Shown: piece after piece, positions 1 through 53,371 of the stretch
Numbering within the stretch: the first letter of the stretch is position 1
How the letters are laid out: the number at the start of each line of letters is the position of its first letter
Source of the DNA: Minisyncoccia bacterium
GTDB lineage: Bacteria > Patescibacteriota > Minisyncoccia > 2-02-FULL-40-12 > IGHO2-01-FULL-4-A
NCBI GenBank assembly: GCA_050015375.1
Contig: JBEKBN010000001.1
Location: forward strand, 34,683 to 98,682
Reading direction: 5' to 3'
DNA length: 64,000 nucleotides
Notes under the pieces: model-generated
Seen by the model: only the letters and a program-made list of their open reading frames with translations
Databases searched by the model: none
Told to the model about the DNA's origin: nothing
Made by a program: the position numbers and the translations under genes

Positions 1-653
1 TCATCAGCGGATCGAGGATCGCCGATACCAATAACAAGACCGTTTCCCGGGTTTTCGCTCTTGATACCAAAAACGGCATCATTGGTTATTACGACAAACG
101 GCTGCTTACGCCGGGCGGCGAATTTCTTCCTTACGCGTTCAAATTCGCCCTGAACCTTTCCGCCAAAGGCAAGATAAGCGCCTTCGGCCAAGCCAGGGAA
201 TTCAGCATCGGTGAAAATAAAAAAACAAATTTCGCGCTCGGTGGAAAATTTACAGTCGCGCCCGTGGTTTGCTCGGAAATCATGTCGCCAGACATTGTCA
301 GAAAGAACTCGAACGGCAAAGACGTCATCGTCGCCATGGCCAGCATGGCGATCTATCACGGCGCCAAAGATAATATTTCGGAAGTTTTGGCCGTTTCACG
401 TTTTCGGGCTGCCGAAAACCAAAAACCGCTTCTCTTATCAGCCAATATGGGGCTCTCTTACGCCATTGACGGCCGGGGAGTAGTCCAGAAGATCACTACC
501 GACGAACAGCCCCAGATATTAACAGGAGATATGGACATTGGCCAAGGAAAATCGTGGTATAATGGATATGGCAATTGGCCGGCATTGATTGCGGCCGGTT
601 TGGGCGTGGTAGCGTTAATTTTTATGAACAAAAAACATGTCAAATCGTCTTAA
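1..653 (+). CDS. lnt: apolipoprotein N-acyltransferase (Lnt), C-terminal part; 5' end lies outside the window
   Basis: Open frame from nt 3. Translation ...YDKRLLTPGGEFLPY...VCSEIMSPD...MGLSYAIDGRG resembles the carbon-nitrogen hydrolase domain of Lnt (catalytic Cys in CSE). C-terminal TM helix; TAA stop at 651-653. Confidence 0.5.
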   Translation, partial: ISGSRIADTNNKTVSRVFALDTKNGIIGYYDKRLLTPGGEFLPYAFKFALNLSAKGKISAFGQAREFSIGENKKTNFALGGKFTVAPVVCSEIMSPDIVRKNSNGKDVIVAMASMAIYHGAKDNISEVLAVSRFRAAENQKPLLLSANMGLSYAIDGRGVVQKITTDEQPQILTGDMDIGQGKSWYNGYGNWPALIAAGLGVVALIFMNKKHVKSS

Positions 654-1671
654 AATCGTTTTGGGCATTCTGGTTTTCATAACCGGCTTTTTGGTTATCC
701 GGGTTGGCTCCGTCCTGACAAGCAAAGTCAAGCTCGCCGACACCACCGCCAGTATTGCCGGCGCCATCAGCAATAACGGCGACTTCACGCCGGTGGACCC
801 GATGACCGTCGATTCCGATCATGATGGCCTTCCGGATCGGGAGGAAATAATTTACGGCACCGACCCTAATAATCCCGACACCGACGGTGACGGTTTTACG
901 GATGGCGAAGAGGTAGCGGCCGGCACTGATCCATTGGATCCGAATGACAACATAGCGACTAGAAAAGCCGGCACCAGCACCGGCAGTTTATCCTTGGTCT
1001 CACCCACGGCGAATTTGACCGACCGCCTCTTGAATACGGGCCTGGCATCTTTGATAGATGATTCGGGCAATCTGAATCCTGACGCCATGACCGACCAAAA
1101 ATACGCCGATATTTTAAATACTATAAACGCCGCCGCCGCCGCCGGACTCGCGCCGACGACGATCGCTGATAGCGACATCAAGATCATTAGCGACAACAGC
1201 CCGGCGGCCATTACCAAATACATCAACACCGTTTCTTCAATAATTGAAGAAGGAATATTTGGTCCCACCGGCGCGATGATAACCGGTACGTCCGACGACA
1301 TCATCGGTTTATCCCAAAATGAAAATTATTATCAAAATAAATATAACGCCTTGAAAGTCATTGAGGTGCCGTCGTCGTGGAAGGAAATAGACAAAACGAC
1401 TTTGACCAGTTTGCAATCTTTGGCCAATGCTACCAAAGCTCTCACACCCGATGCAATAAATTCCGACCCGGTCATGGCTAGTTATGCTTTGAATCAACTC
1501 CAGAACGCATTTTTAACCCTAACTGACTTGATCAGCCAAGCATGCAGTTTGGCCCAATCCCAGAATGTCCCGATCAAGGATTCAATTTTTGATATGCTGA
1601 AAGCCGTCAATGTATCGGCTTCTCCGACACCTCAGATTTCTGCAACACCTCAAGTTTCTCCGATACCATAA
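637..1671 (+). CDS. membrane-anchored secreted protein with thrombospondin-type-3-like Ca-binding repeats
   Basis: N-terminal TM helix (LGILVFITGFLVI), then DSDHDGLPDREE / DPNNPDTDGDGFTDGEE / DPLDPND aspartate-rich repeats. Start overlaps the lnt stop. Confidence 0.5.
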   Translation: MSNRLKIVLGILVFITGFLVIRVGSVLTSKVKLADTTASIAGAISNNGDFTPVDPMTVDSDHDGLPDREEIIYGTDPNNPDTDGDGFTDGEEVAAGTDPLDPNDNIATRKAGTSTGSLSLVSPTANLTDRLLNTGLASLIDDSGNLNPDAMTDQKYADILNTINAAAAAGLAPTTIADSDIKIISDNSPAAITKYINTVSSIIEEGIFGPTGAMITGTSDDIIGLSQNENYYQNKYNALKVIEVPSSWKEIDKTTLTSLQSLANATKALTPDAINSDPVMASYALNQLQNAFLTLTDLISQACSLAQSQNVPIKDSIFDMLKAVNVSASPTPQISATPQVSPIP

Positions 1672-1677
1672 TAAGCT

Positions 1678-3060
1678 ATGGCCAAATTTAAAAAAATCTT
1701 CGCTTCAGTTGTCATCGCCTTTTTGATTTTTGATCTCCTAGTAATTTCATCGAAAAATGCCCAGGCTGCTGCTTTTATCGGTGACCCTTTGGAATTCACC
1801 AAACAATACATAATTTACCCTCTCGTCAGAGCAATTGCCAATTCGTTTGAAAGTATTCTTATCAACAAACTCAATCAACAGATAATCGGCGCTAACGGCG
1901 CCGTGCCATCGTTCATCACCAACTGGCGCAACCATCTTTTGGATTCCGAGGCCCGAGGCAATGATGTTTTCCGCTCGGTTCTGGCTGATGCAAATATCTG
2001 CGGTTTTATGTCGAGTAACATTAAGACGGCTTTCGGCGCCGATCTGTTCGCCGGTTCGATCGCCGGCGCGACCGTGAAGGACGCCAGCGGCAAAGTCGTC
2101 TACACCAACGAGACCAATGTGCCGGGCATGGCCTCTTTCCAGGAATCGGCGAAGTGTACCCTGCCGGCAAATTTTGATGTCAATGCCTTCAATCAGGATT
2201 TTTCTAAAGGCGGCTGGGCGGCCTGGGATCAAATGCTTGAGCCCCAGAACAATCTTTTCGGCATCTACACAATGGCTTTGGGTGAACAGCAAGCTCAGAT
2301 CGCCACCGAGCAAACCTCGACTATGAACTCGGCTGTCGCCGGCAATGGATTTTTGTCAAGCAAGTTGGGCAATGCCGTGGGTTCGGCTCTAGGAGTAAGC
2401 GGATCAGCTACCGGGCCGACCGGTTGCGTTGACACGGCCGGAACCCTGTCCGGTGGGGTCCAGGGCCCTACCATGACTACCCGTTGCACCTTCATGGGTA
2501 AGGATGTTACGCCAGGTTTTCTTAAAGCTGGCGGCGCCGGTTCGGCGATAGGCACAAAAATCGGCCAACCTCAAGCAGCTAAAGAAATTACGGATGTTGT
2601 GTTGAGTCTTTTTAATGACGTGCTTAAGGTGGTCGCGGACGCGACCGGCTCGGTTGGCAACTATCTGGGTCAAGCATCATACGACGCGACTGTCGGCTCC
2701 TTACCTGGCTTTAGCGAAACCCAGAAACAAGCCGGCGCCAGCGACACCCAGATCAATCAGGTCCAGCAACAGGTCAATCAAACCTCGGCTCAACTCGGTC
2801 AAAAAGAAAGCGCTACGGCAAGCGCCGCCAGTGGCACTTGCAGTTCGACTTGCATGGCTACCAAAGCGACGACCTGCACAACTAACAACCAGGTCACCAC
2901 TTGCAACCCAGTGACCGATCCCGTAACCGGCCAGACAACACAAAGTTGCCAGACCAGCACCGACCCAACCGGCTACAACGCCTGCATGGCCCAAGCCCAG
3001 ACCGATTGTAACGCTCAATGCCCGGTCGTGCCTACAGTAAGTATTCCGCCTCCGCCCTAA
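1678..3060 (+). CDS. secreted Gly-rich protein with Thr/Cys-rich C-terminal tail, hypothetical
   Basis: Signal peptide MAKFKKIFASVVIAFLIFDLLVISSKNAQA. C-terminus TCSSTCMATKATTCTTNNQVTTCNPV...CNAQCP. First gene of the T4SS-like block. Confidence 0.45.
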   Translation: MAKFKKIFASVVIAFLIFDLLVISSKNAQAAAFIGDPLEFTKQYIIYPLVRAIANSFESILINKLNQQIIGANGAVPSFITNWRNHLLDSEARGNDVFRSVLADANICGFMSSNIKTAFGADLFAGSIAGATVKDASGKVVYTNETNVPGMASFQESAKCTLPANFDVNAFNQDFSKGGWAAWDQMLEPQNNLFGIYTMALGEQQAQIATEQTSTMNSAVAGNGFLSSKLGNAVGSALGVSGSATGPTGCVDTAGTLSGGVQGPTMTTRCTFMGKDVTPGFLKAGGAGSAIGTKIGQPQAAKEITDVVLSLFNDVLKVVADATGSVGNYLGQASYDATVGSLPGFSETQKQAGASDTQINQVQQQVNQTSAQLGQKESATASAASGTCSSTCMATKATTCTTNNQVTTCNPVTDPVTGQTTQSCQTSTDPTGYNACMAQAQTDCNAQCPVVPTVSIPPPP

Positions 3061-3067
3061 GACCTAA

Positions 3068-5230
3068 ATGCGACTATTTAAAATAAGCAAAAAAATCATT
3101 CCGATAATAGTCATCGTCGCGATGCTGATTTTGATTTTGCCCCAGCATCAAGCGAAGGCGGATCTTCCGGGCCTTGGTAGCATGGCAATAGGCGGCGTCG
3201 CGAGTTGGATAATGAACACAATCATCACAGGAGTGGGTACAGCGATTAGTTGGTCAGCTGGGCTTTTGGATTCTTTCATCGGCATGACTTCTTTTAACCC
3301 CCCATCCCAAGTTCAGGACAGTTGGAAAATGATTCGTGATTTCGTAAACATGTTTTTTATCCTGGTTCTGGTTATTATGGCATTCGGCACGATATTCGAT
3401 CTCCAAAAATATAACTATAAAACATTACTTTCGAGTTTTCTAATTGCTGCGATTTTTGTGAATTTTAGCTATGCAATCGGCATTTATATCTGGAACATCT
3501 CCAATGGCCTCGCTCATATTTTTTTGAGCACGATTCAGGGCGCAAGTAACCAAAGCGTGAGCGCAATCCTTGGCAACGGGCTAAGCTTGGGTCATTTTGT
3601 GACTTGGAACGGAGGCAATGCCGTAAATATCAGCGGCATTTCCAGCACGACAAGCATCGGGGCAGGTTCACCAATAATTACTTCCGTCTTCTTTATAGTA
3701 TTTTTAGTGATGGCTTTGATGGCAATCTTGTCGGCCGCTATTTTTGCTTTCATCAGAATCCCGTTCATCTGGTTCTTTCTTATCATTTCTCCAATCGCAT
3801 GGTTAAGTTATGCCCTGCCTAGCATGCGAAGCGCCGGTTGGAGCAAATGGTGGAAAAATTTTTTAGGCTGGTGTTTCTTTTTGCCGATTTATCTTTTTTT
3901 CCTGATGTTCGCCGTGATTTTTATTCATGTCAAGGACTCGAAAATTACCGAGATCGCAAAACAGCAGGCATTTTTGGCAGGCCCGCAGGCGCAATATGGC
4001 AACACTATGGCTGGGTTATTCCAGGCCATCGGTTTGAACGATATCTTCTTTTTTGTCGTAACGATTATTATCATGGTTTACGGATTGGCCATGGCGAAAA
4101 CGGTTGCCTTCGCGGGTGGTAGCCGAGCCATGAAAATTTTCGGTGGCATTGAGAACGGGGTCAAGCGCTACTTCCCGGGTTCGAGAACGGCACGAGGTAT
4201 ATACGCAGGTGCAAAGCAGGGATATGAGGCCAGAGTCGAAAGAGCCAAGACCGAGGGCGTTGGTTTTGGACGATTTAGAATTGGCGGTGAGAGTAAACTA
4301 AAAGGGACAATTGCCGAAATGGGCGGTTTTGGTGAAAGAGGGGCCAGAGAAAAACAGTTCGCCGCCGAAGTTAAAAAATTAAAAGAATCGATGGCAAATA
4401 TCGGCGATATCGAGCGTATCAGAAAAATGTCTCAGTCTGGCTCGGCTTACCAACAGCTTGCTGCAGCCGAAATACTCAGAGAAAGAAATGCGATGTCCGG
4501 CCAGGAGATGATTGATACGTACAAAAAATACCGAGAGAATAAGGCGTATGTTTCCGCGACTAGATTTATCAGTAGTGTAGACTTCAAGGATCTATCTGGG
4601 GAAGAAAGACGTGCCATCAACGCGAATCTGAATGTTACAGATCTTGAAGCTAAAAGAAAAATCGCCAAAGTCATGGCAGAAAAGGGCGACTTTAAGGCAC
4701 CACTGGGAACACCGGATAATATGAAAGTTCAAGCCGTCGCCGACCAGATTACTAAGGCCGCCGAATTGTTTGCTACGGCTGGGGACAGATTGGATATCTT
4801 GCAGAAAGCGAAGAAAGGTAACATCGAAGCAGCTGCTATAGCCACTGTTAATCTTAAGATACAGGATAAGGATGGGAATATTATTAAAACCACCGATGAC
4901 GCTATCACTAAGCTATTCATTGATTCTATCAGAAAAGCAAAGGTTGACGATATGATCGATCTTTCAAAGGAAACCCTCGCGAATGAGGAAGTAAAAAAGA
5001 TAATTCTGGATAAATTAGACAGAGATTTTCGGACAAAAAATGATTTTATGAATCGAGCAACTGATAAACAAAAAATGGCATTGGGTCTTCCTACTGGCCA
5101 ACAACCACCGCAGACATTCAATGTGGGCGAGGGAATTAGTAGCAATGTGGAACGAGACGGAAATCCGAAAGTAATTCTCGCTTCCGAAAATAATGTCATC
5201 GACCTCCGCAATAAATCTGGCGATGATTAA
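3068..5230 (+). CDS. polytopic membrane protein, VirB6/TrbL-like (putative T4SS channel component)
   Basis: 720 aa. N-terminal signal/TM, then about 6-7 hydrophobic helices in the first 300 aa, and a long charged C-terminal domain. Position upstream of VirB3-like/VirB4 genes. Confidence 0.4.
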   Translation: MRLFKISKKIIPIIVIVAMLILILPQHQAKADLPGLGSMAIGGVASWIMNTIITGVGTAISWSAGLLDSFIGMTSFNPPSQVQDSWKMIRDFVNMFFILVLVIMAFGTIFDLQKYNYKTLLSSFLIAAIFVNFSYAIGIYIWNISNGLAHIFLSTIQGASNQSVSAILGNGLSLGHFVTWNGGNAVNISGISSTTSIGAGSPIITSVFFIVFLVMALMAILSAAIFAFIRIPFIWFFLIISPIAWLSYALPSMRSAGWSKWWKNFLGWCFFLPIYLFFLMFAVIFIHVKDSKITEIAKQQAFLAGPQAQYGNTMAGLFQAIGLNDIFFFVVTIIIMVYGLAMAKTVAFAGGSRAMKIFGGIENGVKRYFPGSRTARGIYAGAKQGYEARVERAKTEGVGFGRFRIGGESKLKGTIAEMGGFGERGAREKQFAAEVKKLKESMANIGDIERIRKMSQSGSAYQQLAAAEILRERNAMSGQEMIDTYKKYRENKAYVSATRFISSVDFKDLSGEERRAINANLNVTDLEAKRKIAKVMAEKGDFKAPLGTPDNMKVQAVADQITKAAELFATAGDRLDILQKAKKGNIEAAAIATVNLKIQDKDGNIIKTTDDAITKLFIDSIRKAKVDDMIDLSKETLANEEVKKIILDKLDRDFRTKNDFMNRATDKQKMALGLPTGQQPPQTFNVGEGISSNVERDGNPKVILASENNVIDLRNKSGDD

Positions 5231-5234
5231 AATT

Positions 5235-5260
5235 AAAAAAGCGCGATTTGTCGCGCTTGT
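5235..5260. terminator. bidirectional hairpin terminator between convergent genes
   Basis: AAGCGCGA-TTTG-TCGCGCTT perfect 8-bp stem. A-tract on its left gives a U-tract for the minus-strand gene ending at 5289. Confidence 0.5.
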
Positions 5261-5288
5261 CAGTTTGTTCGCTTCTTCTTGAGCGGGT

Positions 5289-5912
5289 TTAAGCTCTCCT
5301 GTAGTTTAGCACATAACGAACAAGGTCTTTTATATAAGTATCTGAAACTTCACATCCTTTATATTCCTGAAATAGCACTCCGCCATACCACCCATTTTCT
5401 GGTCGCCTCCCCCTGAAACCACGCTTATGGACGCAAACCTCAAAATAAAAAGACCTTTGATCGGAATTATAGATAATATGGACAAGCCTATCCCTAAAAC
5501 GAGTGCTCGGGTCAAAGAGTAGATAACACTCTGAAACAGTCCATTGTTTATCCAGATTTTTTCCGTATACCTTGCTCTCGGTTCGAATTTCCATTCCGGA
5601 GTTAAGTTCTGATTCGATTAACTTCTTGACCCTGAGAGCGACCGGTTTAACTATTTGGAGATTGGGCTCATTTTCATATTTTTCTTGTAGTTTTTCAGAT
5701 TCCCTATGCTCTGTCTCTCTGTCTCGCCGCCTTTTTTCTTCTTCCCGTAGCTGTTCTTCGCGCTGTTCTTGTTTTTCTTGTAACAAATAAGCCCTATAGC
5801 CCTCCTGTTGACCCTCCCACTCTTCTCGGCTTTGGAATAAGCCTGGCGACGAACCGGGCTGATGTCCTCTAAGACCCCTTTCGTATCCATCGGTTTTCTT
5901 AGACATATTCAC
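5289..5912 (-). CDS. hypothetical protein with charged coiled-coil N-terminus
   Basis: 207-aa ORF on the opposite strand inside the T4SS-like block; E/R/K/Q-rich N-terminal half. No recognisable motif. Confidence 0.4.
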   Translation of the reverse strand: MNMSKKTDGYERGLRGHQPGSSPGLFQSREEWEGQQEGYRAYLLQEKQEQREEQLREEEKRRRDRETEHRESEKLQEKYENEPNLQIVKPVALRVKKLIESELNSGMEIRTESKVYGKNLDKQWTVSECYLLFDPSTRFRDRLVHIIYNSDQRSFYFEVCVHKRGFRGRRPENGWYGGVLFQEYKGCEVSDTYIKDLVRYVLNYRRA

Positions 5913-5992
5913 ACTCCTTTTGGTTGTTTTCTGCTATAATTGTATAGGTGCTGACTGTCTAGGACACTAACAGGGCCTGATAATTAAGTCAA

Positions 5993-6316
5993 ATGCGTTT
6001 TCAAGTTCCACAATTCATCGAGACCGAGACCAAGCTCGTCGGGCCGCTCACGCTCAGGCAGTTTATATACATCGGCGCCGGGGCGCTGATAATTTTCCTT
6101 CTCCGGTATGTTCTTACCAGCGTTTTTTTGTGGATCATGGCGGACATTCCCATCGGCGCTCTGGCCGCCGGTCTGGCGTTCTACAAAATTGACAGCGTGC
6201 CGTTGCCCCGCTATCTGGTGTCGGCGACAAGTTTTCTTTTCGGCGGCAAAAAATATATTTATAAAAAAGAACCGCCGGATAATTCCGATGTAAATCAACT
6301 CTTGAATAAAAATTAA
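5993..6316 (+). CDS. small 2-TM membrane protein (VirB3/PrgI-like position)
   Basis: 107 aa with two hydrophobic helices (GAGALIIFLLRYVLTSVFLWI, ADIPIGALAAGLAFY). Sits immediately upstream of VirB4-family ORFs, as VirB3/PrgI does in conjugation loci. Confidence 0.35.
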   Translation: MRFQVPQFIETETKLVGPLTLRQFIYIGAGALIIFLLRYVLTSVFLWIMADIPIGALAAGLAFYKIDSVPLPRYLVSATSFLFGGKKYIYKKEPPDNSDVNQLLNKN

Positions 6317-6317
6317 A

Positions 6318-6968
6318 ATGCCGCCAAACACCAAACCAGACAATAAAATAGCCACGACCAAGGATTTCGTCCAGATCGCCGATATCCGCGATTCGGTTTT
6401 GATCTTAAAAGACGGCGGTTTGAAATCTCTCATCGAGGTCAATTCGATGAACTTCGAGCTCAAATCAGCCGACGAGCAGACGGCTATTATTCAGTCGTTC
6501 CAGAATTTCGTGAACTCGCTGGATTTTTCTCTCCAGATCGTGGTCAATTCCCGAAAACTCGATCTCAAGCCCTATTTGAAATTCGTTGACGGCATCATCG
6601 CCGAGCAGAAAAACGAGCTTTTGAAGATCCAGGCCATTGATTACAGCCGGCTCCTGACCGGCCTGACCGAACTCTCCAACATTATGGAAAAAAAGTTCTA
6701 CGTCGTGGTGCCGTTTTTCGGCGTCGAGACGCCAAAGACCAAAGCCGGTTTTCTCAGCGCTTTCAAGGGCGTTCTGACGCCATCGGAATTTGCCAAAGCG
6801 ATCAGCGATGAGCAATTCCAGACCTACAAAACTCAGCTCGACCAACGAATAGAACTTATCGCCGGCGGCATCAGCGCTCTGGGACTTGAGGCCAAAGTTC
6901 TCAAAGATGACGAACTGAAAAAACTTTTCTATTCATATTACAATCCCGGGCAACATCTGGAAGCGTAA
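6318..6968 (+). CDS. VirB4-family N-terminal domain-like protein (possible 5' part of a split VirB4)
   Basis: 216 aa. DFVQIADIRDSVLILKDGGLKSLIEVNSMNFELKSADEQTAIIQSFQNFVNSLDFSLQIVV resembles the N-terminal region of Gram-positive-type VirB4/ConE/Orf16 ATPases, from memory only. In frame with the next ORF; separated from it by one TAA. Confidence 0.4.
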   Translation: MPPNTKPDNKIATTKDFVQIADIRDSVLILKDGGLKSLIEVNSMNFELKSADEQTAIIQSFQNFVNSLDFSLQIVVNSRKLDLKPYLKFVDGIIAEQKNELLKIQAIDYSRLLTGLTELSNIMEKKFYVVVPFFGVETPKTKAGFLSAFKGVLTPSEFAKAISDEQFQTYKTQLDQRIELIAGGISALGLEAKVLKDDELKKLFYSYYNPGQHLEA

Positions 6969-6983
6969 AACTCAAAACGAAAC

Positions 6984-8753
6984 ATGCCATTTTTCGGAAA
7001 GAAAAAAGAAAAAGTTCAGGAAGATACCGCCAAGAAAACCTTCGACGATATTTTGGCGCCTTCGGCGATAAATCTTTCGGCAAATTACATCCAGATCGGC
7101 GACAAATTCGCTCGGACCTTGTTTGTCATCACTTATCCGAGATACCTCAATACCAATTGGTTCTCGCCGATAATCAACATGGACCAGCCGATGGATATTT
7201 CTATTTTCATTCACCCCTTGGACACCGGCGTTATTTTGAAAAAATTACGTGACAAGCTTGGACGCCTTGAAGCCGAGGTCATGGAAGACGAGTCGGCCGG
7301 CAAGGTCCGCGATCCGGTCAAGGAAACGGCGGTCAACGACATTGAGGAGCTTCGCGACAAACTCCAGCAGGGCACCGACAGGTTTTTCGAATTCGGTTTG
7401 TATGTCACGCTTTATGGCGACTCGGTCAAGGAACTTGACGAAGTTGAGAATAAAGTTCGGGCGATTCTGGACGCCCAATTGGTCTACACTAAGCCGGCGA
7501 CTTTCCGGATGAAAGAAGGTTTTTTCTCGACCATGCCTTTGAGCAACGACCAGTTGGATGTCCATACTTCGCTTAATACCGAACCGGTTTCTTCGCTGTT
7601 CCCGTTCGTCTCTTACGACCTGACCACCGACAAAGGGATACTTTACGGCGTCAATTCGCATAACAATTCTCTGGTGCTTTTCGACCGGTTCAGTTTGGAA
7701 AATTACAACATGGTCGTCTTCGGTAAATCCGGCGGCGGCAAATCCTACGCCGTTAAATTGGAGATAATGAGAAGTTTGATGCTTGGCGTTCAGGTGTTCG
7801 TTATTGATCCTGAGAATGAATTCAAATATCTTGCCGATACCGTCGGCGGCACTTCAATAAAAATATCCATTTCGTCAGAGGACCACATCAATCCTTTCGA
7901 CCTGCCCAAACCCCAGCCAGACGAATCGCCGGCCGATGTTTTGCGTTCACATATTTTGGACCTGATCGGGCTTTTGAAACTGATGCTTGGCACGATCACT
8001 TCCGACGAGGAAGCTATTCTTGACGAAGCCGTCATTCAGACCTATGCCATCAAAGATATCACCCAAAATTCCGATTTTTCCAGCGCCACGCCACCTCTCA
8101 TGTCCGATCTCTTGAGCGTGCTTGAAGGCATGACCGGCGCCCAGTCGCTGGCTGTCCGGCTGAAAAAATATACCGAGGGCAGTTTCGCCGGTTTTTTGAA
8201 CAACCCGACCAATGTCCGGCTTGATAATCAGTTGGTCGTTTTCGGCATCCGCGACATGGAGGAAGAGTTGCGGCCGGTGGCGATGTATCTGGTTCTAAAT
8301 TACATCTGGGCTCAAGTCCGGAGCGACATAAGAAAAAGATTGCTGGCGGTGGATGAGGCCTGGGTTTTGCTGAAATACGAGGTTGGCGGCGCTTTTCTTC
8401 TCAATATCGCCAAAAGGGCCAGGAAATATTATCTGGGCCTGACGACTATCTCCCAGGACATTCCCGATTTCATGAATTCGGCTTACGGCAAACCGATCGT
8501 CACCAACTCATCGCTCCAATTGCTTTTGCGCCAGTCGCCGGCTTCCATTGACCTTGTCCAACAAACATTCAATCTGACCGATTCCGAGAAATTTTTCCTG
8601 TTGGAATCGCGAGTCGGCCACGGGCTTTTCTTCGCCGGCCAGAATCATGTCGCTCTCCAGGTCGTTTCTTCTTACGCCGAAGACCAGGTCATTACTTCCG
8701 ACCCGCGCCAACTGGCCGACATCGAAGAGGCCAAAAAAGAACTAGAAAAGTAG
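6984..8753 (+). CDS. virB4: VirB4/TrbE/CagE-family conjugal-transfer ATPase (ATPase core)
   Basis: Walker A VVFGKSGGGKSYAV. Walker B LLAVDEAWVLL (DEAW typical of VirB4/TraC). Region before Walker A (KFARTLFVITYPRYLNTNWFSPII...DISIFIHPLD) is typical of VirB4. Confidence 0.7.
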   Translation: MPFFGKKKEKVQEDTAKKTFDDILAPSAINLSANYIQIGDKFARTLFVITYPRYLNTNWFSPIINMDQPMDISIFIHPLDTGVILKKLRDKLGRLEAEVMEDESAGKVRDPVKETAVNDIEELRDKLQQGTDRFFEFGLYVTLYGDSVKELDEVENKVRAILDAQLVYTKPATFRMKEGFFSTMPLSNDQLDVHTSLNTEPVSSLFPFVSYDLTTDKGILYGVNSHNNSLVLFDRFSLENYNMVVFGKSGGGKSYAVKLEIMRSLMLGVQVFVIDPENEFKYLADTVGGTSIKISISSEDHINPFDLPKPQPDESPADVLRSHILDLIGLLKLMLGTITSDEEAILDEAVIQTYAIKDITQNSDFSSATPPLMSDLLSVLEGMTGAQSLAVRLKKYTEGSFAGFLNNPTNVRLDNQLVVFGIRDMEEELRPVAMYLVLNYIWAQVRSDIRKRLLAVDEAWVLLKYEVGGAFLLNIAKRARKYYLGLTTISQDIPDFMNSAYGKPIVTNSSLQLLLRQSPASIDLVQQTFNLTDSEKFFLLESRVGHGLFFAGQNHVALQVVSSYAEDQVITSDPRQLADIEEAKKELEK

Positions 8754-8762
8754 GCACGCATC

Positions 8763-9155
8763 ATGGCTTACGAAGACGAAGTTCAAATGCAATTGGCGGC
8801 AGATCGCGCTCGTCAACAAAAAGCAGAAGAGGAATCTGCCCGCCAGCAATCAGCACCCGAACAAAAACCGATGGGCTGGGGTGTTTTTTTAATTAGTTTG
8901 GTTTTGAGTTTGATTGCCGATCTCTGTGAGATTTCGATCGTGGCCGCGCCACTTGTTCTTTTCATTGATGTCATCCTCGGTTTTATTCTTGGATTTTCAG
9001 CCGGCGCCAGAAAGCAATGGAAAAAATGGATAGCTGGTTTTTTACCGATCCCTTTGGTAAGAGTTGCTCTGTTGATCTGGGCGTTTGTTTCGTCCCGAAG
9101 TGAAAAATTACAAGCGATCTCCAATATCGCCTCGAAGGTCGCACCAAAAGTATGA
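8763..9155 (+). CDS. small membrane protein, hypothetical
   Basis: 130 aa. Charged N-terminus, then two hydrophobic helices. Immediately follows virB4. Confidence 0.4.
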   Translation: MAYEDEVQMQLAADRARQQKAEEESARQQSAPEQKPMGWGVFLISLVLSLIADLCEISIVAAPLVLFIDVILGFILGFSAGARKQWKKWIAGFLPIPLVRVALLIWAFVSSRSEKLQAISNIASKVAPKV

Positions 9156-10228
9156 GATTGAAATCACTGATCATTTTTGTATCAATATTCGTAATCGCCA
9201 TGATTTCTTTTGGTATTGGTTTCTCTATCCTCAACAAACCGCCGGATTCCTCCAATCTCGCCGACTTGTCGCTGGCGGGGAATCCTTTGATAAACCGGTT
9301 CGTCTCCGACGCGCCCGAAATTACCGTCAAGCCGACCGGGGCGGTCAAGTTATCAAACGACACCGGTGAATATTCGATCCTCTCGCCCGACAAAAACAAC
9401 CTCCTTTTTTACGAGCCCCAAACCGGTCAGATACATTCGATAGACATCGCGTCATCGCTTGAAGGCAACGTCGTCGGCTCGACGCCGGCTTATCAATTAA
9501 AACCCGGCCTCACAAATTTGATCTGGTCCAGCGACCGGAACGAAATTATCGCCACGGGTCCGAAAGGATTCGTATATTATGACCTCAAAAATATCAAGAC
9601 GGTAAATCTCGACGCCGACATTAACCAAATCGTTTTCAAAAATGGTTCGTCGGTTCCCGGCGAAGCCGATATCGCTTATATGTCCGTCTCGCCCGACACC
9701 AATGTCGGCGGGATCTATATCCTCAACGCCGCCACCGGTGAAAAGAAAAAGATCTTCAACATCCAAACCGACAACTGGCAGATAAGTTGGCCGACAGATA
9801 GCAAGATCGGCCTTATGATAAACGGAGGTTTGTTTTTGCTCGATATTGCCTCCGGAGAATTGCAAAGAATGGATCAGAAATATTCCGCCGACGAAGTCAG
9901 CTGGTCGCCGGATGGAAAAAAATTGATCTATTCTTCCCAAAACAAACTCTACTTTTTGGACATTGCTTCCGGTCGCGAGACGGACCTTGATCTCGTCGCC
10001 AGTCCTTCGGATTGCGTCTGGGGTTCATTAGGAGCGGTTTATTGCATCACGGTTGATTCGTTCGTATCCTTCAACTCATTGGTCATGACGCCTGAGCTGG
10101 TGGCTGTTGCCGCTAATCCGTTTGGTCCCGCTGTCGCCGAGCTTAGCGTGGATAGCGCCGCCGGTTATTTGGTGTTCAGAGAAACCGGCTCGAATAAGTT
10201 TTATGGTATTTATTTCACCCCATGGTGA
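9152..10228 (+). CDS. membrane-anchored PD40/TolB-like beta-propeller repeat protein
   Basis: N-terminal TM (LIIFVSIFVIAMISFGIGF). Repeated ...SPDxxxLxY.. units (WSPDGKKLIYSS, MSVSPDTNVGGIYI) typical of PD40/WD40-like propellers. 4-nt overlap with the upstream gene. Confidence 0.5.
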   Translation: MRLKSLIIFVSIFVIAMISFGIGFSILNKPPDSSNLADLSLAGNPLINRFVSDAPEITVKPTGAVKLSNDTGEYSILSPDKNNLLFYEPQTGQIHSIDIASSLEGNVVGSTPAYQLKPGLTNLIWSSDRNEIIATGPKGFVYYDLKNIKTVNLDADINQIVFKNGSSVPGEADIAYMSVSPDTNVGGIYILNAATGEKKKIFNIQTDNWQISWPTDSKIGLMINGGLFLLDIASGELQRMDQKYSADEVSWSPDGKKLIYSSQNKLYFLDIASGRETDLDLVASPSDCVWGSLGAVYCITVDSFVSFNSLVMTPELVAVAANPFGPAVAELSVDSAAGYLVFRETGSNKFYGIYFTPW

Positions 10229-20733: not shown

Positions 20734-20856
20734 ATTTTTGTATTTTTCATCTTAAGTTAACCCCTTTTTAATATCTTGGTCAATATTGGAAAAAGGTGGT
20801 AAGATTGTCTGGCAATGAAAAGCTATTTTAAAATTCAAAAATATCGGGAGGTCATT

Positions 20857-21645
20857 ATGAAATGGCTATGGGTGAGTTCTGTTTTTGTGTTTGTTTTCAT
20901 TTTGGGATTATCGGGCACTTCTCGAGCGCAAACCGCCAGCTCGGCCAGTGATGTCCGGCTCGATTATGTCAGGAATCAATTGCTTGCTGGTGGATTTAAT
21001 CAGGCACAAGTAGGGAATTTGCTTACCGACAGCCGGATCCAGCTTTTGCCGAAAATTTCCGTCGCTTACAAACCGGCGAATTGGACGGCGGTCGCCAAAA
21101 GAATGTATTCGAAAACATCGGTTCAGGCCGGCGTCAATTATATCAAAAGCAATCAAGCAATTTTTGACGACACGCAAAAATATTATGGCGTGCCAAGCGG
21201 AGTCATCGCCGGCATCATGGCTATCGAGACCAATTTCGGAAGCAACGTCGGTAGTTATCCCGTTTTTAACGCCCTCTATTCGCGGATGGAACACTGGCCG
21301 GCAAGTTCCTGGCAATATCAGGCGGGAGAGCTGGTGGCATTTTCGAAATATTGTCTGAACGCGAATTTTGATTGTCTACAATTGAAAGGTTCATACGCTG
21401 GCGCCATCGGTCTCGTTCAATTCATGCCCGATTCTATTTTGGCCTACGGCGTGGATGGCGACAAAGACGGCGTTGTTGACCTCCTCAACGCGGCCGATGC
21501 CGTTCCCAGCGCCGCCAATTTTCTTATCCGCCACGGCTGGTTCGTGAATAAACTCAAAGCTCTCGGCAGTTATTACGGCTCACCCGTCGGCTATCCAAGC
21601 ATCGTCCTGACCTACTCGACTCTGGTTGCGAAAGGGTTGAAATAA
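20857..21645 (+). CDS. lytic murein transglycosylase (MltB-like SLT domain), secreted
   Basis: Signal peptide MKWLWVSSVFVFVFILGLSGTSRA. AGIMAIETNFGSN and GAIGLVQFMPDS motifs of the lytic transglycosylase B family. GGGAGG Shine-Dalgarno before ATG 20857. Confidence 0.7.
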   Translation: MKWLWVSSVFVFVFILGLSGTSRAQTASSASDVRLDYVRNQLLAGGFNQAQVGNLLTDSRIQLLPKISVAYKPANWTAVAKRMYSKTSVQAGVNYIKSNQAIFDDTQKYYGVPSGVIAGIMAIETNFGSNVGSYPVFNALYSRMEHWPASSWQYQAGELVAFSKYCLNANFDCLQLKGSYAGAIGLVQFMPDSILAYGVDGDKDGVVDLLNAADAVPSAANFLIRHGWFVNKLKALGSYYGSPVGYPSIVLTYSTLVAKGLK

Positions 21646-26328: not shown

Positions 26329-26343
26329 ATTATAATTATACAA

Positions 26344-26395
26344 TATATACCCGAGCAGAACCCGAGCAGTTATCCACAGTCAATTATTGAATCAA
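26344..26395 (-). promoter_or_regulatory. putative leaderless promoter/operator of the lexA-dam gene
   Basis: Minus strand: TGTGGATAA (perfect DnaA-box 9-mer), then CTGCTCGGGTT-CTGCTCGGGT tandem direct repeat, then TATAAT ending 5 nt before the ATG. No Shine-Dalgarno sequence. Confidence 0.4.
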
Positions 26396-33708: not shown

Positions 33709-35376
33709 TCACTGGCCAATAACCCTCATCACTTCCTCGATAGTGGTTTTGCCTTCGATAGCTTTGAGCAATCCGTCCTGAAGCAAAGTAATCATACCCT
33801 TAGCCACAGCCATTTCTCTAACATCGGAAATTGCCGGTGATCTCTGGATCAATTTCTCCAATTCTGGATCAATTTCAAATAATTCATAAACCCCGACCCG
33901 GCCGGAATAGCCGGTGGAATTGCAAGCCGCGCATTTGTCCGGATAAACGACCTCCGACTTCTCGTTGAAATTTTTCAAACGTTCATTGCCGTTTTTGGCG
34001 AACGCTTTTTTGATGATCTCAAAATCCTCTGGTTTTATTTTTTGTTTTTTGCCGCATTTTGGGCAAGGCCGGCGGACAAGACGCTGGGCCATGACGGCAT
34101 TGATGGCCGGAGCGATGGTGATGGGCTTGACCCCAAAGTCAATCAAGCGGGGGATAGCGCCGGCGGCGTCGTTGGTGTGAAGGGTCGAGAAAACCAAATG
34201 CCCGGTCAACGCCGCTTGCATGGCGATCTCGGCGGTCTCGACATCGCGGATCTCACCGACGAGAATGACGTCCGGGTCTTGGCGGACGATGGAACGGAGG
34301 CCGCTGGCGAAAGTATAACCGGCATCGGGTTCGACTTGGGTTTGGGCGATGCCTTCGATGTGATATTCAACCGGATCTTCAATGGTGATTATCTTGATGT
34401 CGGGATTGTTGATGTGTTTGATGAAAGCGTAAAGTGTCGTCGTCTTGCCTGAACCGGTCGGTCCGGTGGTCAGGATCGCGCCGGTGGTTTTGTCGAGTAA
34501 TTTTCTGATGATTTCCAAGGTGTCAGGACGCATGCCGAGATCTTCAAGTTTTTGTTTGATGGTCAACGGGTCGAGAATACGCATGACGATATCCTCGCCG
34601 TAACTTCCCGGCAGGATCGAAACCCGGACCTCGATGTCGTTGTCTTTTTCTCTGATTGTGAATCGGCCATCCTGAGGTGACTCGTGAATGTTTATTTTGA
34701 GACCCGACATCAATTTTATTCTTGAAAGCAATTGGCCGTAACCGTCGGGCGAAAAATTGACGACATCGTTCAAAACGCCGTCCAGCCGGTAGCGGAGGCG
34801 GATGGTTTTTTCCTCGGGTTCGAAATGAATATCGGAAGCCCCGATCTTCAAAGCGCCGGCGATGAGAATGTTGAGAACCTTGGTCACCGGCATGCTGGTC
34901 AGTTTGTCCTTGAGGTCGCTGATATTTTTGATCTCTTTTTCAATGCCCAAAATCCCGGTGTCTCCGATAGAAATGATATTGAGAGATTCTTGTGCCCCTC
35001 TCAAGGTGTAACGCTTCCAAGCCAAAGCCAAGCTGGTCTCAGAGACAACGGCCAGATCACAAATAAAACCGGCTGCCGCCAGTTTTGAGAGGGCTTCTTT
35101 GGTTTTGGGATTTTCCGGGTCAAGAACCGCCACTTTGAGCTTGCGGCCGGTCTTAGTGATGACGGCGAGTTGGCCGGCGTGGGCGTCGCTTTCGTCCAAA
35201 ACCGACAAAGCGTCTGAATCAATAGGGAAGGCCTTCAAATTGAGATAGGGAAGGCCGGTTTTTTTGGATAATTCCTTTGATTCGTCCTCAAATTGCTGGA
35301 GTTTCATCGCCTCCATCTTCTCATTGAGCTTTTTTTCGAGGTCGGAACTTGAATTGTTCGTGGTCTGTGGTGGCAT
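33709..35376 (-). CDS. type II/IV secretion-family ATPase (PilB/GspE-like)
   Basis: Walker A GPTGSGKTTTLYA; Asp/His boxes; C-terminal tetra-Cys CPKCG...CAACNSTGY of GspE/PilB. Confidence 0.85.
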   Translation of the reverse strand: MPPQTTNNSSSDLEKKLNEKMEAMKLQQFEDESKELSKKTGLPYLNLKAFPIDSDALSVLDESDAHAGQLAVITKTGRKLKVAVLDPENPKTKEALSKLAAAGFICDLAVVSETSLALAWKRYTLRGAQESLNIISIGDTGILGIEKEIKNISDLKDKLTSMPVTKVLNILIAGALKIGASDIHFEPEEKTIRLRYRLDGVLNDVVNFSPDGYGQLLSRIKLMSGLKINIHESPQDGRFTIREKDNDIEVRVSILPGSYGEDIVMRILDPLTIKQKLEDLGMRPDTLEIIRKLLDKTTGAILTTGPTGSGKTTTLYAFIKHINNPDIKIITIEDPVEYHIEGIAQTQVEPDAGYTFASGLRSIVRQDPDVILVGEIRDVETAEIAMQAALTGHLVFSTLHTNDAAGAIPRLIDFGVKPITIAPAINAVMAQRLVRRPCPKCGKKQKIKPEDFEIIKKAFAKNGNERLKNFNEKSEVVYPDKCAACNSTGYSGRVGVYELFEIDPELEKLIQRSPAISDVREMAVAKGMITLLQDGLLKAIEGKTTIEEVMRVIGQ

Positions 35377-35799: not shown

Positions 35800-35899
35800 A
35801 AAGGGACGCCGATTTACATTCGGAGCCAAGCCCGACTTCTTCATGGAGGTTATTGGTTCTTTCAAAATTGGCTTGAGAGATATAGAATCGAAACATAGT

Positions 35900-36466
35900 A
35901 TGAGTATCCCAAAAAAATCGGCAATTGTTATAGTGGTGGTTTTGGCAGTTGGCGTTGGTTTGTGGGCGAGAAGGGCCAATGAAAACGAAATTGCTGCAAA
36001 ATTGGCGAGTGAGGAAACAGCGAATATCATTGCCACTCAAAACACGCCGGAGATTACACCGGAAGGAACATTGGCAAAAGTAATTCGGGTCATTGATGGC
36101 GATACGATCGTCATCGAAGGCGGGGAGCGCGTCAGATATATCGGCATGGACGCGCCCGAAACCGTTGACCCGAAAAAACCGGTTCAATGTTTCGGCCCGG
36201 AAGCTTCAGCTGAAAACAAATTGCTGGTCGAAGGCAAAACCGTCCGTCTGGAAAAAGATGTTTCTGACAAAGATATATATGGCCGCCTCTTGCGATATGT
36301 TTGGTTGGACGGTACCAACATTGACCTTGAATTGGTGCAACTTGGTTTTGCCTTCTCCGACCCTTTTCCACCAAACACAAAATACAAAAATCAAATTCTT
36401 CAAGCCGAACAATCCGCCCGCTCCGCTCATCTTGGTCTCTGGTCCGCCTGCCCGCCAAGGGATTAA
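35900..36466 (+). CDS. thermonuclease (staphylococcal nuclease/SNase-like), membrane-anchored
   Basis: N-terminal TM, then VIRVIDGDTIVIEGGERVRYIGMDAPE...GRLLRYVWLDG SNase fold motifs. Internal ATG 35900 (MSIPKKSAIVIVVVL) preferred over the track start. Confidence 0.7.
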   Translation: MSIPKKSAIVIVVVLAVGVGLWARRANENEIAAKLASEETANIIATQNTPEITPEGTLAKVIRVIDGDTIVIEGGERVRYIGMDAPETVDPKKPVQCFGPEASAENKLLVEGKTVRLEKDVSDKDIYGRLLRYVWLDGTNIDLELVQLGFAFSDPFPPNTKYKNQILQAEQSARSAHLGLWSACPPRD

Positions 36467-41965: not shown

Positions 41966-42820
41966 ATGGATACTGATAATTTAGAAAATCAAAATCCGGA
42001 ACCTAACGCGGTTTTTCGGGAAGAGCAAAAACCTGAACCGAAAAAAGATAAACCGGTCTATTTGCAACTGGCATTGCCGGTGGCGATAGTTCTGGCGGCG
42101 GTTTTGATTTCCGGAACTATTTTATACACTCACGAGCAAAGCACTCCCGGTAATAACAATGGCACCGCCGCCATCGGGAACAAAGCCGATCAGATCGTTC
42201 AAGCCAAGATCACCAGCTCCGATCATATTATTGGCAATGCGAACGCTAAAGTGACCATCGTTGAATTTGCCGATTTTCGTTGTCCGTTTTGCGAGAGATT
42301 TTACTCCCAAACCAAGGACCAGATAATCCAGAGCTATGTTAACACCGGCAAGGCCAAATTCGTTTTCAAAAATTATGCCTTCCTCGGCCAAGAGTCCGTC
42401 TGGGCGGCGGAAGCGGCTGAATGCGCCGGAGAGCAGAATAAATATTGGGAAATGTTCAACTGGCTTTTCACCAATCAAGCGCCCGAAACCAATTTAACTT
42501 TCTACTCGAAAGTAAATCTCATCAAAGATGCCGGCAAGGTCAGCGTGGACACGACCCAATTCGCCAGCTGTCTTAACACCGACAAAACGGCCAGTGTTGT
42601 CTCCAGCGATTTGTCAGCAGGTCAATCGGTCGGCGTTTCCGGCACGCCGTCGTTTTTGGTCTTCAGCAACAAAGATGCCAGTTTTGACGTCAGCATCATC
42701 AAGGCCCAAGAGCTCCAGAACGTTAACATCATCAACCTCCCTAACGGCAATTCCTTCATCATCGGCGCCCAGCCATTCTCGGTTTTCCAGACGGCGATAG
42801 AAACGGCACTAAAGAAATAG
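41966..42820 (+). CDS. DsbA-like thiol:disulfide oxidoreductase, membrane-anchored
   Basis: TM anchor, then thioredoxin fold with CPFC active site (FADFRCPFCERFY). Confidence 0.75.
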   Translation: MDTDNLENQNPEPNAVFREEQKPEPKKDKPVYLQLALPVAIVLAAVLISGTILYTHEQSTPGNNNGTAAIGNKADQIVQAKITSSDHIIGNANAKVTIVEFADFRCPFCERFYSQTKDQIIQSYVNTGKAKFVFKNYAFLGQESVWAAEAAECAGEQNKYWEMFNWLFTNQAPETNLTFYSKVNLIKDAGKVSVDTTQFASCLNTDKTASVVSSDLSAGQSVGVSGTPSFLVFSNKDASFDVSIIKAQELQNVNIINLPNGNSFIIGAQPFSVFQTAIETALKK

Positions 42821-49309: not shown

Positions 49310-49507
49310 GTTTGTGGATAAGTTATCAAACTGCCTGTTGATAGTATAGATTTATTATACAACGGGGTTCAAAAAATGAAAGTCCGTTTTGTGGATAAGC
49401 CAAAGAGAAAGTGCATAAACGAAAAACCGTCAATTTAATGACGGTTTTTCCGATGTGCCGTGGGTCAAAATTAAAACAGGCAAAAGCTTGTTTTAATTCT
49501 TGATTTG

Positions 49508-53292: not shown

Positions 53293-53297
53293 AATTG

Positions 53298-53371
53298 TGC
53301 GCGTGCCTGGACTCGAACCAGGGACCCCGTCTTTATAAGAGACGTGCTCTAACCGACTGAGCTACACGCGC
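53298..53371 (-). tRNA. tRNA-Ile (anticodon TAT; reads AUA)
   Basis: Acceptor GCGCGTG/CACGCGC, D-arm GCTC-AGTCGGTTA-GAGC (Ile-like), anticodon arm CGTCT-CTTATAA-AGACG, T-arm CCTGG-TTCGAGT-CCAGG, discriminator A. Confidence 0.6.

Follow-up and report, generated by a model that had tools for sequence, protein, structure and literature searches.

A type IV secretion-like locus near dnaA in a Minisyncoccia bacterium, with predicted exported proteins standing where related loci carry pilin-domain genes

Type IV secretion systems (T4SSs) are widespread in Patescibacteria. A survey of 3,035 Patescibacteria genomes detected T4SSs in 2,407 assemblies and recovered their VirB4 proteins as a monophyletic clade nested in MPF_FATA (Quinonero-Coronel et al. 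2025, PMC12102498). TrsD, PrgI/VirB3, VirB6 and VirB2-like components were found near virB4 together with very few relaxases, and in Paceibacteria and Microgenomatia the T4SS lay near dnaA, dnaN, rnpA, rpmH and ksgA (PMC12102498). TrsD was the most abundant T4SS component beside virB4, occurring in 1,664 virB4 neighbourhoods, and VirB2-like pilin genes were frequent near virB4 but not universal (1,135 of 1,948 assemblies); the survey detected no adhesins and made no mention of TSP3 or PD40 proteins (PMC12102498). In Southlakia epibionticum ML1, the T4SS encoded by SEML1_0006-0019, which has no recognisable coupling protein or relaxase, was essential for epibiotic growth by transposon sequencing (Tn-seq) (Wang et al. 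2023, PMC10633639; PMC12857230). Few machines other than the Patescibacteria T4SS have been shown to be essential for this epibiotic lifestyle. Both effector delivery and nucleotide or DNA acquisition have been discussed as its roles (PMC11665869). Here we analysed a gene block of this type at positions 637-10228 of a 64-kb stretch of DNA from a Minisyncoccia bacterium (assembly GCA_050015375.1, contig JBEKBN010000001.1, positions 34,683 to 98,682). The whole stretch is referred to as the window, and coordinates are positions within it.

We assign the block, with a probability of roughly 85%, to the chromosomal, dnaA-proximal T4SS already described across Patescibacteria (the candidate phyla radiation, CPR). 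It is a largely known system and adds no new class, and the sequences of its proteins relate it to the Gram-positive MPF_FATA conjugation machinery. Like the published loci, it combines an MPF_FATA-like VirB4, a separate TrsD beside virB4, and PrgI/VirB3-like and VirB6-like proteins, lacks relaxase and coupling-protein genes at the locus, and lies on the chromosome by dnaA, dnaN, rnpA and rpmH. Unlike them, it has no array of VirB2-like pilins (PF18895) within the 64 kb, whereas the Saccharibacterial locus includes six essential pilins. Its flanks are also different, holding a TSP3 protein, a Cys-rich protein and a PD40 protein, with no peptidase or lysozyme gene directly downstream of virB4. 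A first-pass annotation, made by reading the sequence without database searches, had placed a T4SS-like block among housekeeping genes close to the origin. All the open reading frames (ORFs) that it listed at 637-10228 are present, and dnaA, dnaN, rpmH, rnpA, yidC and jag are nearby. Its view of the novelty was overstated, since the system, the missing relaxase and the proximity to dnaA were published in 2023-2025.

One genome per GTDB species was scanned with the VirB4 sequence, which returned 252 relatives, and the best 80 of these 252 were used for the comparisons. All 80 are Patescibacteria metagenome-assembled genomes (MAGs), named Yanofskybacteria, Paceibacteria, Nealsonbacteria, Staskawiczbacteria and others, and their VirB4 proteins are 54-78% identical to that of the window. 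Together with a database protein identical to the 460-aa protein of the block, which is recorded as a hypothetical protein of a Minisyncoccia bacterium, this bears out the earlier suggestion of a minimal VirB4 system of ultra-small bacteria. Synteny was assessed by tblastn and all-against-all ORF clustering of the 80 loci plus the window; many of the relatives' contigs are truncated, and the synteny counts are lower bounds. The core order adjoining VirB4 (large polytopic protein, small soluble protein, PrgI, TrsD, VirB4 and small membrane protein) was found in 60-78 of the 80 related genomes, usually a few genes away from jag-yidC-rnpA and dnaA-dnaN. VirB4 was present in 80 of the 80 loci, TrsD in 78, PrgI in 75, the family of the 720-aa polytopic protein in 60-67, Jag in 61, YidC in 60, RnpA in 56 and DnaA in 53. 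The order VirB6-like-PrgI-TrsD-VirB4 beside jag-yidC-rnpA and dnaA-dnaN was thus seen in 53-78 loci, a recurrence far beyond chance. The 80-locus comparison defines a compact Paceibacteria core that consists of an extended VirB6, a tail-motif protein, PrgI, TrsD, VirB4 and a small membrane protein.

The last of these, a 130-aa protein in the window, forms one family with clusters c14, c26 and c37, as indicated by cross-hitting hidden Markov models (HMMs) and by hhalign (probability 95%, E 2e-8). In 53 of 81 loci a member of this family directly follows virB4. The protein matched no Pfam, NCBIfam or PHROG family and was neither PrgF-like nor PrgL-like by hhalign. Its sequence family and position indicate that it is a conserved, unnamed component of the locus.

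Three proteins of the core were assigned by their domain families. The 107-aa protein, which had been called VirB3/PrgI-like, matched PrgI (PF12666) in Pfam with an E of 2.5e-11 and 44.4 bits against a cut-off of 27, and its homologues in the related loci are directly upstream of TrsD. The 216-aa protein matched the NCBIfam TrsD/TraD model NF041427 with an E of 1e-5 and 25.5 bits, far under the cut-off of 200. It aligned to N-terminal positions of three VirB4 models (98-233 of NF045975, 13-119 of NF045971 and 19-65 of NF010427), and a protein identical to it carries the precomputed Pfam label PF26593 ('TraC-like'), indicating that this TrsD is free-standing and homologous to the N-terminal domain of VirB4. 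The 589-aa VirB4 matched NF045971, the Gram-positive CD1110 family, over model positions 183-733 of 752 (352.9 bits, cut-off 325), and contained the Pfam domains P-loop_TraG, AAA_10 and CagE_TrbE_VirB. CD1110 is the same family name that RefSeq gives to PrgJ of pCF10, to which the 589-aa protein aligned over PrgJ residues 228-772 only (25% identity, E 3e-42). Both of its Walker motifs, A (GKSGGGKS) and B (LLAVDEAW), are intact. It appears to be an intact VirB4 of the MPF_FATA/CD1110 type, made up of the middle and C-terminal P-loop domains.

One TAA and 15 nt separate the 216-aa and 589-aa ORFs, which share a frame and had been taken for a split VirB4 and a possibly inactivated ATPase. The two same-frame ORFs are real, but they are not a broken gene; they represent a conserved two-gene arrangement (PMC12102498). 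TrsD and VirB4 were separate ORFs in all 78 loci holding both and were fused in none. They shared a frame in 27 of the 78, about one third, as chance predicts. All three stop codons were found at the junction among the relatives, and the gaps, whose size depends on the start codon chosen, spanned -92 to +483 nt. Because the two genes are separate in 78 of 78 loci, with random frames and varied stops and spacers, the split is ancestral and maintained. Stop-codon readthrough or recoding at the TAA was ruled out by the use of all three stops and by the differing frames in relatives. A VirB4 pseudogene split by a nonsense mutation was also ruled out, as none of the 78 relatives had a continuous ORF and the split was not lineage-specific. 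The 'split' VirB4 of Paceibacteria should not be annotated as a pseudogene.

The 720-aa protein was predicted to contain a signal or transmembrane (TM) segment and about five TM helices (residues 1-345), followed by a hydrophilic domain of ~375 aa. An AlphaFold2 (AF2) model built from 65 family sequences (pLDDT 81) has a helical membrane domain, a helical-repeat domain (residues 423-680) and a disordered tail ending in NNVIDLRNKSGDD. Searching this model against the PDB with Foldseek gave no match with an E below 0.03. The highest probabilities were those of the TrwI/VirB6 chains of R388, namely 8rt9_F (probability 0.99, E 0.097, TMt 0.40, 314 aligned columns, 10% identity), which is a weak match, and 8rtd_L (probability 0.92). 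In the 60-67 loci that have it, the family is upstream of PrgI-TrsD-VirB4, as in prgH-prgI-prgJ of pCF10. About 15 relatives of the protein carry the precomputed label PF19590, which we take to be a TrbL-like family, and the precomputed PF19590 and PF19478 labels were not reproduced in a scan with a Pfam copy that seems to lack both families. We therefore call the protein 'extended VirB6-like' by position, topology and weak fold match, and not a demonstrated family member. The earlier VirB6/TrbL-like call is partly supported by these three features and found no counterpart in the HMM and profile searches. The protein is clearly linked to VirB4 and is clearly no recognisable transporter. Its database relatives also include P0059, an 850-aa fusion of KsgA (16S rRNA dimethyltransferase) with a VirB6-like protein. 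Many loci have ksgA (cluster c9) as the gene just ahead of the VirB6-like one, so this fusion may have arisen as an artefact of gene calling or of a frameshift.

In 53 loci the gene that directly follows the VirB6-like one encodes a soluble protein of ~130-190 aa, whose low-complexity linker leads into a short conserved motif at the C-terminus. Members of the Yanofskybacteria-like clade have GGNIIDLRNK there, and others have D-x-Y-R-E-P-I-E. The window has no such small gene, and the 720-aa protein itself ends in the motif-bearing tail (window 5190-5230). The same arrangement, with the motif at the VirB6-like C-terminus and the small gene missing, was found in one relative (P0005/L082), and in another (L029) the VirB6-like protein contains the whole small soluble protein as a fusion (HMM E 5.8e-16). 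This tail-motif arrangement was not found described in the Patescibacteria T4SS literature, and its novelty is modest.

In both the window and L082, the slot vacated by the small soluble gene holds an opposite-strand gene of the 205-aa type. The 205-aa protein, whose better start is an ATG two codons inside a 207-aa ORF, shares 64% identity with the first 205 aa encoded by a 340-aa L082 gene that has the same slot and orientation, a value above the 36% identity of the two VirB6-like proteins. The gene is absent from all 80 genome loci, and the protein has 2 representatives among 1.84 billion proteins, one of them a distant relative. It had no Pfam, PHROG or PDB match, and two metagenome scans for it were empty; it is probably not a core part of the T4SS. 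The VirB6-like and 205-aa genes converge on a putative terminator-like hairpin, which probably marks the division between two transcription units. Loci differ in what they carry in the slot from the VirB6-like gene to prgI (window 5231-5992). In L083, a strain variant of the window locus, an AbiEii toxin pair is inserted in it (1896-2769), and other lineages fill it with an SPFH/Band-7-like gene on the reverse strand, in 18 loci, or with small genes of the four-helix-bundle (23S-IVS) type.

The core is flanked by three genes for predicted exported or membrane-anchored proteins. The 344-aa protein matched TSP3_bac in Pfam (E 2.5e-19), with two TSP3 Ca-binding repeats at residues ~57-105, one N-terminal TM segment and a C-terminal ~240 aa without a known domain. 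Homologues at the same position were found in 21-22 of the 80 loci, with identities of 25-48%. The 460-aa protein had no match in Pfam, NCBIfam or PHROG. Its family (n = 29) shares invariant Cys residues and a signal peptide and is located upstream of the VirB6-like gene in 22 loci; the AF2 model of the protein was poor (pLDDT 56.5), and Foldseek on it yielded no fold match. A DsbA-like thioredoxin protein encoded elsewhere in the window could oxidise Cys-rich exported proteins. For the 358-aa protein, the PD40 call is weak (23.6 bits, cut-off 20.9; TolB NCBIfam E 2e-6, under the cut-off), and 22-26 loci had a homologue with 20-32% identity in this slot. The proteins with Ca-binding repeats and a propeller that the first-pass annotation pointed out thus belong to the conserved make-up of the locus in 22-26 relatives. 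In 20 loci all three genes were present together at these positions, and 28 loci had one or more of them. These accessory proteins evolve much faster than VirB4, with identities of 20-48% compared with 64-78% for VirB4 in the same genomes. A PHROG search with eight proteins of the block gave only a weak match between TrsD and terminase and a match to the TSP3 repeats. The TSP3, 460-aa, PD40, small-membrane and small-soluble families were compared by hhalign with 14 Prg/Pcf proteins of pCF10, and because no probability exceeded 9%, the five families are not recognisable homologues of PrgB, PrgC, PrgD, PrgF, PrgK or PrgL.

In other Paceibacteria, the flanking positions of these accessory genes are taken by proteins with a T4SS_pilin domain (PF18895, E 3.3e-8). 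ORFs with this domain were found in 43 of the 53 loci without the accessory set and in 3 of the 28 loci with it, so that the two are nearly mutually exclusive. An HMM of the pilin domain built from 72 locus proteins gave nothing significant against the six-frame translation of the 64-kb window (best E 0.12). The set of TSP3, Cys-rich and PD40 proteins is clade-specific and stands where other Paceibacteria carry pilin-domain genes. These proteins provide concrete candidates for host contact in systems in which no adhesins had been recognised (PMC12102498), and the novelty of the surface-protein module together with the tail-motif arrangement appears modest.

Among T4SSs of other bacteria, the locus resembles the Prg/Pcf system of pCF10 (Enterococcus faecalis) in its VirB6-like-PrgI-VirB4 order, its CD1110 VirB4 (25% identity over ~550 residues), its PrgI Pfam family and a monoderm architecture without VirB7, VirB9 and VirB10. 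However, PrgJ of pCF10 is one protein of 796 aa, whereas in the window the N-terminal domain is on a separate TrsD. The coupling protein PcfC, the PcfG relaxase, the PrgK hydrolase, the VirB8-like PrgL and the PrgB adhesin of pCF10 have no detected counterparts in the window. PrgH has 266 aa compared with 720 aa for the VirB6-like protein, with no significant profile match between them, and pCF10 is plasmid-borne and mobile whereas the window locus is chromosomal and fixed. A free-standing TrsD, as in the window, is known in only one classical MPF_FATA subclass, the Trs system of the Staphylococcus plasmids pGO1/pSK41 (TrsD and TrsE), although the 216-aa protein falls far short of the TrsD/TraD family cut-off. 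pGO1 has no recognisable VirB6 and is a conjugative plasmid with a relaxase and a type IV coupling protein (T4CP) (PMC12102498). The 720-aa protein resembles TrwI/VirB6 of R388 (PDB 8rt9, 8rtd) in its polytopic helical membrane domain and the 'extended VirB6' proteins of Rickettsiales in its large hydrophilic extension (PMC12857230). It differs from TrwI in having no HMM relationship to it, and TrwI serves a diderm system that includes VirB5 and a VirB2 pilus, both of which went undetected in the window.

Pfam scans of the 49 ORFs of at least 129 aa across the window found no domain of a relaxase, a VirD4/TcpA-type coupling protein, VirB11 or an integrase, in agreement with the earlier statement that the block is not a complete conjugative element. 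The features that would mark an integrative and conjugative element (ICE) or a plasmid, namely a linked relaxase, a coupling protein, an integrase or replication module and a variable location, were not seen within the window, and the position of the locus is fixed beside dnaA across the 80 species. Conjugation is unlikely because no relaxase or coupling protein is nearby and because the locus is fixed next to dnaA.

We propose that the block most likely encodes a host-interaction translocon that would either export proteins to the host or import material from it, two directions that sequence data cannot tell apart. Protein export specifically is a tentative choice to which we give somewhat less than even odds. 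In this model, the core would comprise the extended VirB6-like protein, the PrgI/VirB3-like protein as an anchor for the ATPase, VirB4 with its N-domain supplied by a separate TrsD, and the small membrane protein. The fifth core part would be the small soluble protein in most relatives, and here its tail motif is found on the VirB6-like protein itself. PrgI and the VirB6-like protein would be the platform at the cytoplasmic membrane on which TrsD and VirB4 assemble, together with the small membrane protein, and the assembled machine would power the transport of macromolecules across the single-membrane envelope. The TSP3, Cys-rich and PD40 proteins may form or decorate an extracellular contact with the host cell. 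A more specific combination of these ideas seems doubtful as a whole: in Yanofskybacteria-like Paceibacteria, pilins would have been replaced by a surface module, giving a contact apparatus without a pilus and a VirB6 protein with an adaptor domain. The module would consist of the Ca-binding TSP3 protein, a disulfide-rich secreted protein with a putative new fold and a membrane-anchored beta-propeller. The cytoplasmic helical-repeat domain of VirB6 would carry a docking motif, N-[IV]-[IV]-D-L-R, and could be a built-in substrate or ATPase adaptor that replaces the coupling protein.

Several points weigh against the proposed translocon. The 720-aa protein, its N-terminal 377 aa, and 35+15 relatives gave no Pfam or NCBIfam match even at E values up to 10. 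A comparison of the family with a single PrgH sequence by hhalign was not significant (E 0.069), and neither was that of a 118-sequence family profile with a 43-sequence PrgH profile (E 0.37). The profile-profile alignment nevertheless matches up the same TM region, that surrounding the invariant R230 and S241-P242. The fold match to VirB6 is weak (TM 0.40). VirB8-like, VirB1-like and pilin components were not found in the block, and genes for a coupling protein or for pilins could lie beyond the 64 kb of the window. The extracellular role suggested for the accessory set is drawn from co-location and from signal or anchor sequences alone. The role of the Patescibacteria T4SS was termed 'completely unknown' in a review (PMC11665869). 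About 10 kb from the block, the window encodes an SLT_2 lytic transglycosylase, which could be a VirB1 surrogate.

Reversing the direction of the translocon gives a sub-case in which the VirB4 apparatus imports DNA from the host or the environment, like ComB of Helicobacter or Ced of Sulfolobales, and would thereby feed an organism unable to make nucleotides. This idea, raised in PMC11665869, fits the absence of a relaxase and T4CP from the window, the gene for a secreted staphylococcal-nuclease-type (SNase) protein, which bears on the scavenging of DNA or nucleotides, and the weak NCBIfam resemblance between VirB4 and CedB, a DNA-import protein (E 1.7e-12). However, the score for CedB (NF041017) was 46.8 bits against a cut-off of 700, which is only generic P-loop similarity, no CedA or ComB6-10 partner families were detected among the block proteins in Pfam or NCBIfam, and no DNA-binding component was identified in the block. 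Moreover, competence in S. epibionticum needs ComEC and is dispensable, while the T4SS is essential, so the two functions are separable (PMC12857230). We consider DNA import unlikely.

Two other explanations bear on the parts of the machine rather than on its direction. The 720-aa protein might be an unrelated transporter or scaffold next to a minimal PrgI-TrsD-VirB4 unit, with the surface proteins being ordinary envelope proteins. This would agree with the lack of HMM or profile-profile support for TrbL, VirB6 or PrgH, with chance matches only when the family profile was searched against PDB sequences, with a Foldseek E of 0.097 among many helical-repeat decoys, and with the absence of the accessory proteins from most of the 80 loci. 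On the other hand, the synteny comparison that the first-pass annotation had called for showed tight linkage of the family to PrgI-TrsD-VirB4, the upstream genes are 6-7 nt apart in the window, no transporter family HMM matched the protein, the TrwI/VirB6 chains had the highest Foldseek probabilities, and the architecture fits the 'extended VirB6' class (PMC12857230). We regard this explanation as improbable. Least probable by far is that the block is a non-functional remnant of a decaying ICE with VirB4 cut by a nonsense mutation, as might be read from the single in-frame TAA and from the relaxase, T4CP and integrase missing from the window. The two-gene split in 78 of 78 related species, with random frames and variable gaps, is incompatible with a recent nonsense mutation. 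In addition, all core ORFs are intact, VirB4 is conserved across 80 species, the locus keeps the same chromosomal place beside dnaA, and TrsD is also separate in pGO1-type Gram-positive systems and in the patescibacterial virB4 neighbourhoods of the survey (PMC12102498).

The ORF map of the block shows nine genes on the plus strand and one on the minus strand (Table 1). The plus-strand genes are closely packed, with intergenic gaps of 6, 7, 1, 15 and 9 nt and a single overlap of 4 nt, where the start of the 358-aa PD40 gene overlaps the 130-aa gene. The 3' end of an apolipoprotein N-acyltransferase-like gene lies 5' of the block. On its 3' side are a Wzx-type flippase gene, jag, yidC, yidD, rnpA and rpmH on the minus strand, followed by dnaA and dnaN on the plus strand, with the dnaA start 3.7 kb from the block end. 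The G+C content of the block (0.44-0.50) is similar to that of the remaining window.

Table 1 Positions of the genes and features of the T4SS-like block and of other features in the 64-kb window
Feature	Position	Strand	Basis
TSP3 surface protein, 344 aa	637..1671	+	Pfam TSP3_bac, N-terminal TM
Secreted Cys/Thr-rich protein, 460 aa	1678..3060	+	Signal peptide, 12 Cys, 10% Thr, no family
Extended VirB6-like polytopic protein, 720 aa	3068..5230	+	Topology, position, weak fold match
Terminator-like G+C-rich hairpin, putative	5239..5258	.	Consensus scan: 8-bp stem, 5 GC pairs, T-run
Charged protein, 205 aa, no family	5289..5906	-	Gene called on 7 contigs
PrgI/VirB3-like membrane protein, 107 aa	5993..6316	+	Pfam PrgI PF12666
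TrsD-like protein, 216 aa	6318..6968	+	NCBIfam TrsD/TraD NF041427
VirB4 ATPase, 589 aa	6984..8753	+	NCBIfam NF045971, Walker motifs
Small membrane protein, 130 aa	8763..9155	+	Charged N-terminus, 2-3 TM segments
PD40/TolB-like propeller protein, 358 aa	9152..10228	+	N-terminal TM, Pfam PD40
SLT_2 lytic transglycosylase	20815..21645	+	
RhuM/Fic protein, 327 aa	22577..23560	+	RhuM virulence-family and Fic/DOC domains
LexA/D12 ORF, 517 aa	24790..26343	-	LexA DNA-binding, S24 peptidase and D12-class N6-adenine DNA methyltransferase domains
PilB-type T2SSE ATPase	33709..35376	-	MshEN domain
SNase-type protein	35843..36466	+	
DsbA-like thioredoxin protein	41966..42820	+	
tRNA-Ile, anticodon TAT	53297..53371	-	ARAGORN

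The spacer between rpmH and dnaA contains zero DnaA boxes, so the label 'origin-proximal' rests on gene content and not on a mapped oriC. Across the window, perfect DnaA-box 9-mers (TTATCCACA) formed two close pairs, at 26285-26378 on the plus strand and 49313-49398 on the minus strand, 85 and 77 nt apart, respectively, and matches with at most one mismatch numbered 23 compared with 12.5 expected. Cumulative GC skew had equal minima at 14-16 kb and 24-26 kb. The true oriC may not be directly at dnaA.

Other features of the window are distant from the block. The 517-aa ORF appears as a LexA-like repressor fused to a Dam-like methylase and lies in a low-GC patch at ~24-28 kb (G+C 0.365, compared with ~0.47 elsewhere), with several no-family ORFs around it. 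The RhuM/Fic protein is encoded just before this patch. The PilB-type ATPase marks type IV pilus machinery. A tRNA-Ile with the anticodon TAT, an uncommon bacterial way of reading AUA codons, is located beside a tRNA-Val(TAC).

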